From: a virus
Lineage: Duplodnaviria > Heunggongvirae > Uroviricota > Caudoviricetes
IMG/VR virus record: IMGVR_UViG_2703718816_000004
Reading direction: 5' to 3' (one strand)
Length of the DNA stretch: 5,264 bases
Within the stretch, counting starts at the first letter, position 1, and each line of letters opens with the position of its first letter. Position numbers and translations under genes: made by a program. This document shows, piece by piece, positions 377 to 5,264 of the stretch. The notes under the pieces are model-generated. The model was not told the origin of the DNA. It saw nothing but the letters and a program-made list of their open reading frames with translations, and did not search any database.

Positions 377-404
377 AATAAAAAAGGCACCATTTCTGGT
401 GCCC
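377..404 (-). terminator. Intrinsic (rho-independent) terminator-like hairpin between J and lom
   Basis: On the minus strand: GGGCACC-agaaat-GGUGCC followed by UUUUUUAUU. The 6-7 bp GC-rich stem is plus 386..391 pairing with 398..403; the U-tract corresponds to the plus-strand A-run 377..385. It lies 19 nt after the J stop codon. Confidence 0.6.
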
Positions 405-422
405 TTATATGGGTTATAAAAT

Positions 423-3400
423 TCAGCTGATACTGATGCCTGCGGTGGCTTTCTTCATCACCACAACCAGCAAATCGCTGATACTTGCTGTGGGATACCA
501 GTTATTCACCAGCCATGCTGACACCGAAAACTCCAGTGTCATGTGACCGTGACCGGCAGGCATATCAATAACGCCACTGTAAATCAGCGTATTATCCAGC
601 GCGGTACGGTTATAAATTTCAGCACCGTTTTTCCGCACTATCAGACGGCATGAGGAGTAAATATCAGTATGCTCTCTCTCATGCTTAGCGCCACTGAATG
701 CCACCGCCGGAATAACAATCTGCCGGTCAAACGGCTGATCGTCATAAACCCTGACGGTAATGGTCCCTGATGGCCACCGCTCCGGTGCCCGGGAGTCCCG
801 CGGGAAAGCCTTACCCACTGTTTTGACAATATCGCCTTCAATCTGGTTGGCTGACAGTTTCCCCTTAATCTGACAGTTCTCATTAATCGTGACGTTGTTG
901 AGCGTCCCTGAGTTCGCATTCACACTGCCACTGATATCCGCATTTTTAGCGGTCAGCTTTCCGTCCGGTGTCAGGGAAAATGCCGGAGGATTACCGCCGC
1001 TGGTAATGGTGGGGGCCGTCAGGCGTTTCAGGAACACGTCGTTCATGAATATCTGGTTGCCCTGCGCCACAAACATCGGCGTTTCATTCCCGTTTGCCGG
1101 GTCAATAAACGCGATACGGTTAGCGGCAACCAGAAACTGGCTCAGTTTACCGTCCTCCGTGTCCTCCATGCTGAGGCCAAGCCCGGCAACATAATGCTTA
1201 CCGTCTTCGGTCTGCTCAATTCTGACGCCCCACATGGCATTCCATTTATCGTTAGCGTCTTTCCACTCTTTCGAAAACTCATCCAGTCTGCTGGCGTTAT
1301 CTTCCGTCAGTTCAGCGTTTTCCAGCAGCTCTTTACCGAGATGTGTTTTATTAATCAGCCCTTTGTAAAAATTCAGGTAGCCTTCGGCATCATCGCTGGC
1401 CCGGCCGACGGCCTCCACAAATGCCGATTTGCCCACCAGGTTGACGCTGCGGATATAAAAATAATAATCATGGCCCGGCCTGATATTACTGGCGGCTGTC
1501 CAGTACAGCGCCGTGCCAAGATAGCGGGCGGAGGTTTCAACCTGCCTGATATCCGCAATCTGCTGTTCCGAAAACCAGAATTCAAACTGCACCGTCGGGT
1601 CATATACAGCCAGTTTCGGGACCGCCGTTATCTGAAAATACCCCGGTATCAGTTCAATGGTGGCGGGCGCTGCCGGGGCGTCAATCCGGAACGTGGTGGT
1701 GGCAGGTTCGCCCTGCTGGCCATAGCTGTTAATCGCCCTGACCGTCAGGGTGTATTCCCCGGGCGGCAGACCACTGAAACGGTGCGCCGTGTCTGCGGTG
1801 ATGGCGGTGGTCACCAGGCGGCTGTCATCCCCCCTTCCGCTGGTCAGACGCAGACTGAAGCGCACACCTTTCACCACCCGCGGCGTGTCCCATTTCGCCT
1901 GCGCCAGATACTGGCCGTCTGAGGCACTCACCTCCACCGCGAGGTGCTGCACTGCCGGTGGAATAACGCTGTTCAGGGTGCCGGACAGCGGCTCAAAGCT
2001 GGCCCCGTTATCCACGATGGCTTCTTTTTCCGGTACGTGCTGCACTGCCGTGATGGCAAAGGTGCCATCCGTGTTTTCCCGGATGGCGACACAGCGGAAC
2101 AGGCGACGTCGAAGACCGGGAATTTTCAGTCCCCACACACCGTATGTCGCCACGCCATCAGGCAGGGCACTGACCTGTATCCGGGCAGGGGCCGGTTGTG
2201 CCGTGATGTCCACACTCACCGGCTTACCGCTGCCGTTAATCAGGTTCACCGTCGAAGTACCTGTCTCCGGCAGTGTCACCTCACGGTCCAGCGTCAGTGT
2301 GCGGCTGGCGGCATCAATGGACAGGACACGTCCGCCGGTCAGGGTCCCGGCGTAGTCGTTATCACAGATTTCAATGATGTCTCCGGGCGTGTGCCGCAGC
2401 CCCTGTGACCCGAGCGTGAAATCCACCGTCTGCGTTTCCAGCAGTCCGGTCTTTATCACCCACAGTCCGGCACGGTGGGCCTGACCGCGGCTGGTACAGC
2501 CGAACGCGTCCATCTTCAGCAGGTTGCGTCCGTAGCGCAGTATGGCTTCCGGGTCTTCCACCAGTTCCGTGGAGGTCTGCCAGCCGTTCTGCGGGTCGGT
2601 GTAATTCACCTCCACCGCCGTGTGCCGGTCCTTCAGGGCACTGAAGCTGTAGCGGAACCCCACGCCGTTATCATCCACCACCACATCGCTGTTGGTGTAC
2701 GGCCACACCACATCCGACGGGCGGTCCTGAACGAACGTCAGCGTCTGGCCGTTCCATACCGGCATACAGCGCATCGCCGAGCAGAAATCGCTGAGCACAT
2801 CCCACGCCTTACGCTGCTGTGACAGGTACGCATTAAACGTCATCCGCGGCTCTGTCCCTCCGAAGCCGTCCGGAACACGCTGGTCACAGTACTGCCCGAT
2901 GGCATACAGCGCCCATTTGTCCACGTCCGCGGCCCCCAGACGTTTTCCCATCCCGTAGCGCGGGTGGGTCAGCATGTCCCACAGACACCAGGCCGGATTG
3001 TTGCTGTATGCCGGTTTCAGACTGCCGTCCCAGATACCGCTGTAAGTGCGTTTTTCCGGGTCGTAGTTTGACGGCACCTGGATGATGCGACCGCGGATAT
3101 GGTAGTTCACCGTCATCTGCTGCCCACCAAACTGCTCCGCATCCACCTGCAGTCCCACAATGGCCGTGTTCGGGTAGCACTGTTTCACATCGATGATTTC
3201 GGTGTATGACGACCACAGCGTTCTGTTCTGCAGCTGGTCCGTGGTGCTGTCCGCCGTCTCCCGGACCATCCGGATGTTAAAGGGACGAGGAGGCAGATTA
3301 TCCAGAATCACCGACGCCAGAAACTGCGAGGTGGTCTTGCCGTGAATGGTGACATCCTTTTCCGTCACCCAGTTACCGTTACGCTGTAACTGAATCAGCA

Positions 3401-3809
3401 GCCGGACAGAAGCCGGATTACGGTCACCCTGTGAAGTTGTCTGCACCAGTGACTGCACCCCGAAGGTGACCCGCAGGCGGTCAATGTTCGCGGACGTAAT
3501 GGTGCGCGTCACCGGCTTTGCCTTCGTTACCTCCACGCCCAGTGCAGTTTCAGCCCCGGAGGACTCAAAGCCTTCCGGTGGTGTCTGCTCCTGCTCCCCG
3601 GCTCGCCAGACCGCGGTCACACCGTGTATCACGGGATTACCGTCCGTGTCCGTCAGCGGGGTTTTGTTCACCAGGATACTCTGCAGTCCCTTCACCGGGC
3701 CTTCCACCGGTCCCTCTCCAATCGCATCAATCACGCTCATCATCTGCGTGGATTTGAGATTATCCTTTGCCTCAACCGGCGTGTGCCCCTTGCCGCCACC
3801 TTTGCCCAT
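423..3809 (-). CDS. J: Tail tip host-specificity protein J (central tail fibre), about 1128 aa
   Basis: Long minus-strand ORF. Translation from ATG at 3809..3807 begins [22 protein letters not shown] and is collinear along its length with my recollection of lambda gpJ. SD-like AAGGGTGAG sits 7 nt upstream of this ATG (plus 3815..3823 reverse complement). The ORF-track start at 3851 is an in-frame TTG extension that would run through the upstream hairpin, so the ATG at 3809 is preferred. Stop TGA at 425..423. Confidence 0.93.
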
Positions 3810-3840
3810 TGTCTCACCCTTTACTGTGATAACTGTTACG

Positions 3841-3874
3841 CACAAAAACAACAGGCATCCCGGAGGATGCCTGT
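3841..3874 (-). terminator. Terminator-like hairpin immediately upstream of J (perfect 10-bp stem, 4-nt loop, U-rich tail on minus strand)
   Basis: Plus 3851..3860 ACAGGCATCC pairs perfectly with 3865..3874 GGATGCCTGT (loop CGGA). On the minus strand the hairpin is followed by UGUUUUUGUG (plus 3841..3850). It sits about 30 nt upstream of the J start codon on the same strand as J. Confidence 0.5.
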
Positions 3875-3891
3875 ATCATGACTGAATAAAA

Positions 3892-3916
3892 ATTCTGAAT
3901 TTCTTCACATTCTGAA
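3892..3916. repeat. Short direct repeats ATTCTGAA (x2) and CTGAA (x3) in the AT-rich I-J spacer
   Basis: ATTCTGAA at 3892..3899 and 3909..3916; CTGAA also at 3881..3885. They are flanked by an A8 run (3915..3922). Possible protein-binding or UP-element-like sequence; function unknown. Confidence 0.3.
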
Positions 3917-3927
3917 AAAAAAGACTG

Positions 3928-3956
3928 TTGCGCTGATAAATACGCTGCGTTACTTT
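3928..3956 (+). promoter_or_regulatory. Candidate sigma70-like promoter on plus strand (TTGCGC - 17 bp - TACTTT) in I-J spacer
   Basis: -35-like TTGCGC 3928..3933, 17-bp spacer, -10-like TACTTT 3951..3956 (T1, A2, T6 present), preceded by an A-tract at 3915..3922 resembling an UP element. It would initiate near 3963 and run into the plus-strand terminator at 4004..4045. Weak match; speculative. Confidence 0.2.
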
Positions 3957-4003
3957 TTAGTGCCTGAAAAATAACTCCATAACGTTAATCTTCATCGTTC
4001 TCT

Positions 4004-4045
4004 CCCGCAGCTCCGCGATCACTGCGGGATTTTTTTATTCTTTTT
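4004..4045 (+). terminator. Intrinsic terminator-like hairpin oriented for plus-strand transcripts, abutting the I stop codon
   Basis: Plus 4004..4010 CCCGCAG pairs with 4022..4028 CTGCGGG (11-nt loop), followed directly by ATTTTTTTATTCTTTTT (4029..4045). The T-tract is on the plus strand only; on the minus strand the hairpin is preceded by an A-tract and followed by non-U-rich sequence. Confidence 0.55.
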
Positions 4046-4724
4046 ACCCCTGCCGCCCGATAACCACGACCTTTCCGCCCCCGCCTTCATCACGGGTACT
4101 GATGTCCTGGGATATACGGCGGGAGCCAACCAGCATTTCCCCGTAAGGCACCGGCATCGGGTTCCCCTGGGCAATCATGTTATCCAGCGAGGAAAAGTAC
4201 GTGTTCTGTTTACCGTTATCCGTACTTTTGTACTCCGGCGTCTTTGCCTTCGGGGCCAGCATCTGGGCCACACCACCCAGTATCATGCTGGCCCCCAGTG
4301 AAAACAGCATCGTGGTGGCAGAAAAACCGCCGGCACTCAGGGCTGTACCCCATAACGCCATCGAGGCACCGGCAGTGAAGAAAGAGCCCACGATGGCTGC
4401 CGCCCCCAGCACAATCTGCAGTCCACCCTTTCCGGCCCCGGCCAGTCGCGGCACAATGTGGATGACCGTTCCCTCACCCAGCTGTTCGTGAAGACGGGCG
4501 TACACCGCCTCCGGTGCCGTGTCATAACCGGCAATACGTATCTGGTACCAGCCTTCGTTCATCTGACGGCGGAATCCGGGCACCTGTAACGACAGCGCCC
4601 GGATGGCTTCCGCTGCCGTGTTCACATACAGGCTGAGGCGGCGACCAAATCGTTGTAAATCCCCGTGAAGGCAGATGCGTGCCAGTGGCGGTGACGCCAG
4701 ACGGAATGCGTTCGTCGTTGCCAT
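4044..4724 (-). CDS. I: Tail tip assembly protein I (N-terminal ubiquitin-like domain, diglycine, Gly/Ala-rich hydrophobic C-terminal half), 226 aa
   Basis: Minus-strand ORF beginning MATTNAFRLASPPLARICLHGDLQRFGRRL, closely matching my recollection of lambda gpI. SD-like GGGAGAGG is upstream of the ATG at 4724..4722. Stop TAA at 4046..4044. Position between K and J matches lambda. Confidence 0.9.
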   Translation of the reverse strand: MATTNAFRLASPPLARICLHGDLQRFGRRLSLYVNTAAEAIRALSLQVPGFRRQMNEGWYQIRIAGYDTAPEAVYARLHEQLGEGTVIHIVPRLAGAGKGGLQIVLGAAAIVGSFFTAGASMALWGTALSAGGFSATTMLFSLGASMILGGVAQMLAPKAKTPEYKSTDNGKQNTYFSSLDNMIAQGNPMPVPYGEMLVGSRRISQDISTRDEGGGGKVVVIGRQG

Positions 4725-5264
4725 TTTTCAGAATACCTCTCCCGTTTACTCAGTTGCTCAGGTATATGATGAAGCAGTTCACCGTTGCCGCAGTAAATGG
4801 CAGCATGGTTGGGTACCGATGCGCCAAAGCAGCACAGCAGGATATCGCCTGCCTGTGCCGAGGACAGGGGCACCCGGTAAAAACCAGTGGCCTCCATATT
4901 GTCCAGATACAGGTTCTGGCCATTGCGCCACCACTCATCCTCGCGGTGAAAATCCGGCATCTCAATCCCCGCCAGATGGTATGCATCCCTGAACAGCGTG
5001 TAACAGTCCGTCACCCCGTGTTCAAAACGACGCCCGGTCAGGTGCGGCACACAGCGGAATTTATGAATGTCCCCCCGGCAGACCAGCCACCAGGGCAGGG
5101 CACTTTTTATCTGCAGCCGCCGGTCGGCCTCGCTCAGCCAGGGCAGGCCACCGGGATGGCTGTGGACCAGTGCCACAATCTCCCCCTGCATCTCTGCCCG
5201 CAGCCAGTCTTCCGGGGCAATACGAAAATACGCCTCCGGCTCTGCAGAGATATTCACGCACGGC
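4622..5264 (-). CDS. K: Tail tip assembly protein K (JAB/MPN metallopeptidase-like + NlpC/P60-like domains); start uncertain or 5' partial
   Basis: Minus-strand ORF open to the window edge. It contains the JAMM-type motif HSHPGGLPWLSEAD (HxHx7Sx2D, about 5164..5123) and an NlpC/P60-like Cys (GVTDCYTL, about 5005..5003) with downstream His residues (VPNHAAIY, LLHH). Stop TGA at 4624..4622. Candidate starts inside the window are GTG 5257 and ATG 5191; the frame remains open upstream to 5264, so the true start may lie outside the window. Confidence 0.88.
   Translation of the reverse strand, partial: PCVNISAEPEAYFRIAPEDWLRAEMQGEIVALVHSHPGGLPWLSEADRRLQIKSALPWWLVCRGDIHKFRCVPHLTGRRFEHGVTDCYTLFRDAYHLAGIEMPDFHREDEWWRNGQNLYLDNMEATGFYRVPLSSAQAGDILLCCFGASVPNHAAIYCGNGELLHHIPEQLSKRERYSEKWQRRTHSVWRHRHWHASAFTGIYNDLVAASACM

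Follow-up and report, generated by a model that had tools for sequence, protein, structure and literature searches.

What does a gap between two phage tail genes hold when it encodes no protein? The question arises at the junction of the tail genes I and J in the viral record IMGVR_UViG_2703718816_000004 (Caudoviricetes), from which we analyzed a stretch of 5,264 nucleotides, hereafter called the window. The two genes are separated by a spacer of 234 bp (3810–4043) with a GC content of 0.34–0.42 in 100-bp windows vs. 0.57–0.66 in the flanks, and the list of open reading frames (ORFs) contains none of at least 30 amino acids inside it. A first reading of the bare sequence (the original prediction) had described the spacer at these coordinates as an AT-rich insertion without a sizable protein ORF, bounded by two opposing terminator-like hairpins, and had guessed at an RNA cargo. 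The dimensions, the base composition and the strong folding of both hairpins were borne out, and the guess was right: the spacer holds a copy of pasB, the same gene as EcOnc22, EcOnc23 and EcOnc24, which encodes an Hfq-dependent small RNA (sRNA) of lambdoid prophages and has already been described. Taken together, the spacer very probably consists of an ancestral hairpin on the J side and an inserted PasB cassette encoding a trans-acting sRNA.

The identification is carried by the northern probes of two independent studies. PasB was reported as an 83-nt sRNA of prophage PP6 in the enteropathogenic Escherichia coli (EPEC) O127:H6 strain E2348/69 (NC_011601, 1466343..1466261, minus strand; PMC8550237 Table S6). 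The probe used to detect it, AATCCCGCAGTGATCGCGGAGCT (PMC8550237), matches the window exactly over 23 of 23 nucleotides at 4009–4031 on the minus strand; this makes it a plus-strand RNA whose 3′ end is the terminator on that strand. In E2348/69, PasB sits inside a 240-bp I–J spacer, antisense to I and J, and its U7 tract ends at a distance of 5 nt from the I stop codon. The two copies share the I–J site, the antisense orientation and a collinear locus; the AATCTT stretch, the block upstream and the layout of the promoters are conserved between them, and their 3′ 33 nucleotides are identical, terminator and loop included. They differ in that the 5′ half of the window's RNA is diverged and 7 nt shorter and the hexamers of the upstream candidate promoter are weaker in the window. 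The similarity to E2348/69 PasB amounts to 86% identity over 71 nt with blastn at word size 11 and gives no match at word size 28.

The second line of evidence comes from crosslinking and cDNA analysis of Hfq (Hfq-CRAC) in enterohemorrhagic E. coli (EHEC) O157:H7 Sakai, where the peaks EcOnc22, EcOnc23 and EcOnc24 were assigned to the prophages Sp15 (Stx1), Sp14 and Sp11 (PMC4104026). Northern blotting with the probe GGGAGAGAACGATGAAGATTAACTGATGAGTTA gave a band of "~85nt", recorded as "Destabilised" in the hfq deletion strain (PMC4104026). The first 23 nucleotides of this probe match the window exactly at 3984–4006 on the minus strand, and the last 10 differ; the same 23 nucleotides also match the I–J spacers of Sp15, Sp14 and Sp11. 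The published peak coordinates (PMC4104026 Table S2) derive from an older Sakai record and stand about −128 nt from NC_002695.2, at least from 1.78 Mb onward, an offset that we checked on HnrS/EcOnc12, where the published peak falls about 128 nt short of the terminator. After a shift of +128, all three peaks fall in I–J spacers on the antisense strand, and the probe site in Sp15 (2902874–2902896) falls within the shifted peak (2902842–2902902). Unshifted, EcOnc22 would appear on the antisense strand of the J-proximal hairpin rather than on PasB. Compared with the window, the Sp15 copy has the same site and strand and an identical RNA body from TGCCTG to the terminator stem; the differences lie in the terminator loop (GCTAACT vs. 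GCGATCA in the window), the promoter-proximal region and the J leader.

The window's element has the position of the family, lying in the I–J spacer on the strand opposite the tail genes with its 3′ end beside the I stop codon. Judged by sequence and position, PasB and EcOnc22–24 are one family and the two literatures can be merged; we found no statement of this equivalence in published work on PasB or the EcOnc RNAs. By northern blotting and RNA sequencing, PasB is an RNA of 83 nt with log2 fold changes of −6.8 and −2.4 in the hfq deletion strain (PMC8550237). By analogy with the Sakai and E2348/69 homologues, the window's copy would be transcribed in the lysogen, bound by Hfq and dependent on it for stability. 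These discrete, Hfq-dependent RNAs of about 83–85 nt, seen on northern blots in two independent studies and running opposite to J, also contradict the idea that the spacer is merely a long conserved J leader or regulatory region without a gene of its own. The spacer does immediately precede J and is conserved among many prophages, but in lambda and many relatives J is expressed behind a spacer of 60 bp, and we give the idea next to no credence.

Table 1. Positions and strands of the features of the window, with the basis of each assignment
Feature	Position	Strand	Basis or remark
PasB/EcOnc22-type sRNA	3961..4036	+	both northern probes; alignment with E2348/69 PasB and Sakai Sp15
A-rich ARN-like tract of PasB	3966–3975	+	
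Conserved single-stranded TTAATCTTC, AATCTT invariant, putative seed	3985–3993	+	
PasB terminator	stem 4003–4010/4022–4029, U7 4030–4036	+	fold
PasB promoter region, two candidate sigma-70-type promoters	3912..3960	+	read from sequence
Candidate promoter P1	CTGAAA 3912–3917, 17 bp, GATAAA 3935–3940; start near 3947	+	
Candidate promoter P2	TTGCGC 3928–3933, 17 bp, TACTTT 3951–3956; start near 3962	+	
CRP-like site TCTGA-N6-TCACA	core 3894–3909, 22-mer 3891–3912, centre 3901/3902		sequence match
Most conserved spacer block	3884..3911		alignment of 26 unique spacers
J-sense stem-loop (3874..3851) with U-rich tract (3850..3841)	3841..3874	−	fold, base changes in the stem, positional equivalents
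J leader with ribosome-binding region (AAAGGGTGAGACA preceding ATG)	3810..3840	−	alignment of 26 unique spacers
I stop codon	4046..4044	−	7 nt past PasB 3′ end
I, tail assembly protein gene	4724..4044	−	Pfam PF06805 Lambda_tail_I, E 2.5e-16; ORF
K	5257..4622	−	NlpC/P60 and JAB domains
J, tail tip/host specificity protein gene	423..3809	−	ORF; near-identical E. coli prophages annotate gpJ
Lom/Ail-family gene, start	below 353	−	

The anatomy of the RNA (Table 1) was studied in a sample of 124 I–J junctions collected from viral contigs and species-representative genomes, of which 81 contain the PasB terminator, representing 33 unique alleles. The window's RNA measures 76 nt if its 5′ end corresponds by homology to the one annotated in E2348/69 and up to about 90 nt from P1. 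Its plus-strand hairpin has 7–8 pairs, an 11-nt loop and a T7 tract, with a folding energy of −13.8 kcal/mol (z −3.4) that none of 200 shuffles equalled, and has a T-rich tail extending to the I stop codon; this hairpin with its U7 is the terminator of PasB. Across the alleles, the terminator stem and U tract are invariant, whereas the loop differs both in its sequence and in its length (10–17 nt). The AATCTT just 5′ of the stem is invariant as well (like the stem, over 14–33 alleles), the A-rich ARN-like tract is kept, and the remainder of the 5′ half falls into at least four divergent types. RNAalifold found the terminator to be the sole consensus structure of 14 alleles, leaving the rest unpaired. 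This build is the usual one for an Hfq-dependent base-pairing sRNA, and its seed would be the conserved stretch adjoining the terminator on the 5′ side, as also proposed in the preprint of Zhu, Shabalina and Storz (2026).

The same preprint searched bacterial genomes at word size 28 (Zhu, Shabalina and Storz 2026). In our local test, E2348/69 PasB at that word size matched only 21 of the loci and missed the window's allele. Because such a search misses 5′-divergent alleles, published censuses probably undercount the family, which appears larger and more diverse than reported; we found no account of its many 5′-divergent alleles in the literature on PasB or EcOnc22–24. A comparison of the spacer with Rfam, which the original prediction had proposed as a check, did not lead to the gene: no Rfam 15 family matched at gathering thresholds anywhere in the window, and the best subthreshold match, Arrc14, scored 22.8 bits against a threshold of 99 and was carried by the terminator. 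The weak matches to Arrc14, sR32 and snR67 were set aside as chance or terminator driven. Other named sRNAs were rejected on position: HnrS (EcOnc10–12), a multicopy sRNA of prophage late genes, is located between Rz and the terminase genes, and lambda PreS/LPR1, LPR2 and 6S belong to the early-left operon or to the beginning of the late operon.

The conserved seed also lies opposite a minus-strand ATG at 4000 that opens a frame of 12 codons (MKINVMELFFRH) and is accompanied by a Shine–Dalgarno-like GGGAGAG, which could suggest a type I toxin–antitoxin-like pair with a tiny peptide under the control of the antisense RNA. The frame is of another length in E2348/69, however, its start codon is absent from major alleles (ACGAAGATT, ACAAAGATT) and the ATG is the mere complement of the conserved seed. 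We rejected the frame as a gene on its lack of conservation across alleles and consider such a pair scarcely credible.

As to function, the homologues are made in lysogens, are bound and stabilized by Hfq and form chimeras with many partners, for which reason PasB would be a trans-acting sRNA that base pairs with mRNAs of the host and of its islands. In EPEC, interaction mapping by RNA ligation and sequencing (RIL-seq) recorded 37 PasB interactions as Hfq-dependent chimeras, 30 of them with coding sequences or 5′ untranslated regions (PMC8550237). The gene nevertheless lies wholly within the I–J intercistronic region on the opposite strand, and the antisense placement is kept in every class of spacer, even where the superoxide dismutase gene sodC has been added. 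PasB might for this reason work mainly in cis, pairing with the late I–J transcript or being titrated by it, so that it tunes J or goes off at induction and its trans targets are secondary. Against this stand the chimeras formed in EPEC lysogens, the production of PasB while the late genes are silent, and the pattern of conservation, which is strongest in a short seed-like stretch and lets the 5′ half of the antisense body diverge freely. A mainly cis-acting PasB is thus unlikely. A cis-antisense role is possible beside the trans role rather than in its place, with a purely cis role secondary: in lytic growth, the fully complementary late I–J mRNA could pair with PasB.

On the J side of the spacer, the minus-strand hairpin reads ACAGGCATCC-TCCG-GGATGCCTGT followed by TGTTTTTGTG, or as RNA ACAGGCAUCC-UCCG-GGAUGCCUGU followed by UGUUUUUGUG. 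It has 10 pairs, 6 of them GC, and folds at −19.3 kcal/mol (z −4.3), a strength that none of 200 shuffles reached; with its GC-rich stem-loop and a U-rich tract directly after, it fits the form of an intrinsic (Rho-independent) terminator. In 10 variants of the window's class, 98% of the stem cells are paired and one compensatory exchange of U–A to C–G is seen. Six G·U cells pair in J-sense RNA only, as the opposite strand would give A·C mismatches; because the base changes fit only this pairing, the hairpin acts in J-sense RNA.

Similar hairpins are found at the junction far beyond the window's relatives. The 60-bp spacer of lambda (15445–15504) carries AACCGCC-TGCG-GGCGGTT just before J, then TTGTCATTT (in RNA, AACCGCC-UGCG-GGCGGUU, then UUGUCAUUU). 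It shares with the window the site just upstream of J, the strand, the GC-rich stem, the UNCG-type loop and the T tract, but its stem sequence is unrelated and the spacer is too short for an sRNA gene. Prophages of Citrobacter, Enterobacter, Rahnella and Pantoea, with I proteins 36–79% identical, have a GC-rich hairpin and T tract at the I–J junction, each with its own stem, and the loops are frequently of the UNCG type (UCCG, UGCG, UUCG). A simple scan detected a terminator-like hairpin in J sense in 99 of the 121 spacers scanned; all length classes were represented apart from that of E. coli sodC (0 of 13). Since lambda and distant relatives have positional equivalents, the hairpin is not a boundary signal of the insert; it is ancestral to the I–J junction and older than the PasB insertion.

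Two parts of the original prediction have to be revised in this light. Of the two signals thought to flank the element, the plus-strand hairpin stands as the terminator of PasB and the minus-strand hairpin belongs to the older junction. Lambda itself has no spacer of this length, and a J-sense hairpin with a T tract is present there. A special dependence of J on antitermination, which had been suggested, is not upheld, as a terminator-like hairpin before J is the normal state of lambda-like late operons and no peculiarity of this prophage. The polymerase that transcribes such operons is antiterminated by Q. Given the shape and conservation of the hairpin, we would expect Q-modified polymerase to read through it in lytic growth, and the hairpin to stop unmodified transcription and/or stabilize the upstream message. 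We found no published function for the lambda I–J hairpin in the literature.

A strong hairpin with a U tract is also the usual Hfq-binding 3′ end of an sRNA, and the 37 nt lying 5′ of it on the minus strand (3875–3911) are highly conserved and AU rich. The hairpin could then terminate a second, J-sense sRNA with these 37 nt as its body, forming a convergent or overlapping pair with PasB. This seems very unlikely: a convincing minus-strand promoter was not found in any allele, the Sakai I–J spacers have no listed minus-strand Hfq peak (PMC4104026), and the class of spacers of about 342 bp keeps the conserved block with PasB and exchanges the hairpin module. In lambda, moreover, the hairpin stands alone in a 60-bp spacer that has no room for a gene.

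The conservation of this block is better considered together with PasB, with which it stays when the J-side hairpin module is exchanged. The most conserved block of the spacer contains a CRP-like core, TCTGA-ATTTCT-TCACA, with one mismatch to TGTGA-N6-TCACA and AT-rich flanks that fit the 22-bp consensus, which is AAATGTGATCTAGATCACATTT. By hand count against this consensus, the site agrees at 9 of 10 core and 14 of 16 specified positions. Within its 16-mer the half-sites are invariant among the 26 unique spacers and only the central bases 3900 and 3901 vary, the pattern expected of a site for a dimeric protein because variation is confined to the two central bases. Downstream of the block, two candidate promoters can be read. 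Their E2348/69 counterparts are TTCACA-16-TATAAT for P1 and TGGCGC-17-TAGTGT for P2, and the GTTA...T of the P2 −10 region is conserved in all alleles, including the sodC class; a consensus promoter scan of the window reported neither P1 nor P2. Class I CRP sites are centered near −61.5 (or −71.5, −82.5 and −92.5). Counted from the 5′ end inferred by homology (3961), the CRP-like site is centred at −59.5, and counted from the predicted P2 start at −60.5 to −61.5, both close to the class I position; use of P1 would put it at about −45.5. PasB is more abundant in overnight static lysogeny broth (LB) than in Dulbecco's modified Eagle medium (DMEM), and the CRP-repressed Spf shows the opposite (PMC8550237). 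We tentatively propose the invariant block as a putative class I cAMP–CRP site for PasB, an assignment that could be right and that we hold to be somewhat more probably wrong; the literature on PasB and EcOnc22–24 contained no mention that we could find of a CRP-like site about 60 bp upstream of the annotated PasB 5′ end. Among other regulators, FNR was set aside, each half-site agreeing with TTGAT/ATCAA at only 3 of 5 positions, where agreement with the CRP half-sites reaches 4 of 5 and 5 of 5, and a sigma-S −10 element with C at −13 is not present.

Several points weigh against the proposed account. The search for the CRP core gave one match in the window vs. 0.17 expected, and at least one match also occurred in 30 of 200 shuffles, so the match is not significant window-wide. 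The better-looking P1 would start about 15–20 nt further upstream, placing the CRP-like site at about −45, which is nonstandard for activation, and the 5′ end of PasB at 3961 is itself derived from homology. The difference between LB and DMEM would fit stationary-phase or low-oxygen control too. The expression evidence comes from the homologues and not from the window's own prophage, and we found no validated PasB target in the literature. The terminator stem never varies, so that covariation is uninformative either way. The J-proximal hairpin, finally, is not indispensable, as the E. coli sodC class does without one, and its function is deduced from shape and conservation.

With these reservations, the spacer is very probably composed of two parts of different age, an old J-side hairpin and an inserted PasB cassette of about 160 bp reaching up to the I stop codon. 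Within the cassette, the invariant block would come first, followed by a weak promoter of the sigma-70 type, a largely unstructured RNA body that includes the A-rich tract and the conserved AAUCUU-containing stretch, and the terminator stem of 7–8 bp with U7. By its homologues, PasB would be transcribed in lysogens from the strand opposite the tail genes, and a class I cAMP–CRP site about 60 bp before the RNA start would tie it to the carbon state. In its boldest form, the account would make the PasB cassette a carbon-state sensor in the tail operon: a CRP-driven sRNA family much larger than catalogued, EcOnc22–24 and the sodC-linked copies included, with a shared seed and terminator and diverging 5′ halves, that is also a cis-antisense partner of the late I–J message. 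As a whole this is doubtful; if true, prophage induction and PasB activity would switch each other off.

We examined whole junctions for the status of the extra DNA. The lambda spacer, given in the original prediction as about 60 bp, is 60 bp long, and spacers fall into distinct length classes: 60 bp in lambda and close relatives; 71–90 bp in Citrobacter, Enterobacter, Rahnella and Pantoea; 234–260 bp, the window's class; about 342 bp, with PasB and a different J-proximal module; 662–714 bp, with other cargo; and about 851 bp, with sodC. The short form is found in lambda, Shigella and E. ruysiae, and at 71–90 bp in Citrobacter and Enterobacter. As these relatives carry the short form, the extra 170 bp or so behaves as a moron-like insertion, in agreement with the original prediction. 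The DNA is missing from close relatives (60 bp vs. 234–260 bp); of the signals expected of a moron, the terminator is clear, the promoters are two candidates that the consensus scan did not report, and expression in the lysogen is known from homologues.

The junction receives other cargo as well. In the 851-bp E. coli class (L046, L050, L058, L061 and others), an antisense sodC (Pfam Sod_Cu, E 3.9e-32) lies directly 5′ of the PasB 3′ module; in this class, the source of PasB might be the sodC transcript, or else P2 alone. In Citrobacter meridianamericanus (L106), a 714-bp spacer has sodC, again antisense, beside a lambda-type hairpin. Pseudocitrobacter faecalis (L118) and Enterobacter wuhouensis (L120), with spacers of 662–666 bp, have a sense ORF of 181–185 amino acids with a lipoprotein-like signal (LLISAC/LFISGC), after which a hairpin and T tract precede the next gene. 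The I–J junction is thus a general moron site for sRNA, sodC and putative lipoprotein genes, and PasB is its sRNA version; we found no mention in the literature on PasB or EcOnc22–24 of sodC and other morons sharing its site.

In the class of about 342 bp (L010–L045 and others), the J-proximal 150 bp contain a different module that replaces the window-type hairpin, AAACCCCGGTATC-TGCT-GATACCGGGGTTT, with T tracts on both strands in the shape of a bidirectional terminator. The module also has about 100 bp of leader before J, which might contain a further small RNA. Nineteen loci from unrelated organisms (L088–L101, L103, L112, L113, L116 and L123), among them Neobacillus, Pseudomonas, Shewanella, Bradyrhizobium, Enterococcus and Collinsella metagenome-assembled genomes, share one identical 60-bp spacer. 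Their I and J score exactly like those of lambda (78 and 75% identity to the window's) and several lie on contigs of about 48.4–48.5 kb; these loci, which make up many of the 60-bp class, look like contamination of species-representative assemblies with lambda control DNA. The E. coli-type PasB prophage fragment in "Streptomyces flavalbus" (L085) is probably contamination too.

The spacer is common in E. coli, being found in 799 of 5,426 complete genomes (∼15%) at 2,305 places, with a median of three per genome. The E. coli matches are at least 99% identical in 47 records and 80–90% identical in 740. A further 147 phage records contain it, mostly Stx1a-, Stx2a- and Stx2c-converting phages.

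The surroundings of the spacer are those of a lambdoid tail operon. All genes of the window lie on the minus strand according to the ORF list and Pfam, and the window matches E. coli lambdoid prophages at up to 98% across its full length. K and I overlap over 103 nt (4622–4724) in different frames, an overlap equal in length to that of lambda (14773–14875). Terminator-like sites are not enriched in the whole window (8 observed vs. 4.7 ± 2.1 expected), and the strongest are the two I–J spacer hairpins and one between J and the lom-like gene. This third hairpin (383–406, minus strand) lies just past the J stop codon, reads AAGGGCACCA-GAAA-TGGTGCCTTT followed by TTTATTG and folds at −18.5 kcal/mol over 69 nt (z −3.2); the J–lom spacer of lambda folds far more weakly (z −0.5). 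Because it adds to the J-proximal one, J has terminator-like hairpins at both sides. The J leader is the most variable part of the spacer, with a mean majority fraction of 0.78 and 7 of 31 columns invariant among the 26 unique spacers. In L075 and the class of L048, L053, L067 and L079, the equivalent of 3810–3840 contains two to four copies of the heptamer TGTCTGA (TGTCTGATGTCTGATGTCTGATGTCTGA in L075), a length-variable tract just 5′ of the J ribosome-binding site, in alleles for which the extraction sets GTG as the J start.

For the window, the outcome is one of annotation: a known sRNA gene occupies the seemingly "empty" AT-rich gap, and lambda-like late operons normally have a hairpin before J. 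What keeps its interest is the link between PasB and the EcOnc RNAs, the diversity of alleles, the candidate control by CRP and the unexplained conserved hairpin before J. More widely, PasB-type sRNAs contribute to the regulatory load with which prophages burden pathogenic E. coli. Among other known systems, the prophage sodC moron shares with PasB the I–J insertion and transcription antisense to the tail genes but is protein coding and about 850 bp long, and in its E. coli class it takes the place of the J-sense hairpin, of the CRP-like block and of P1. The anti-sRNAs AgvB and AsxR, HnrS (EcOnc10–12) and PasA, PasC and PasD resemble PasB in design: they are short Hfq-dependent sRNAs with an intrinsic terminator, set at fixed moron sites of lambdoid prophages and often multicopy, with a conserved 3′ part and a variable 5′ part. 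Their sites are different, however, lying downstream of PR′/Q or stx or between Rz and terminase, and they have no sequence similarity to PasB.

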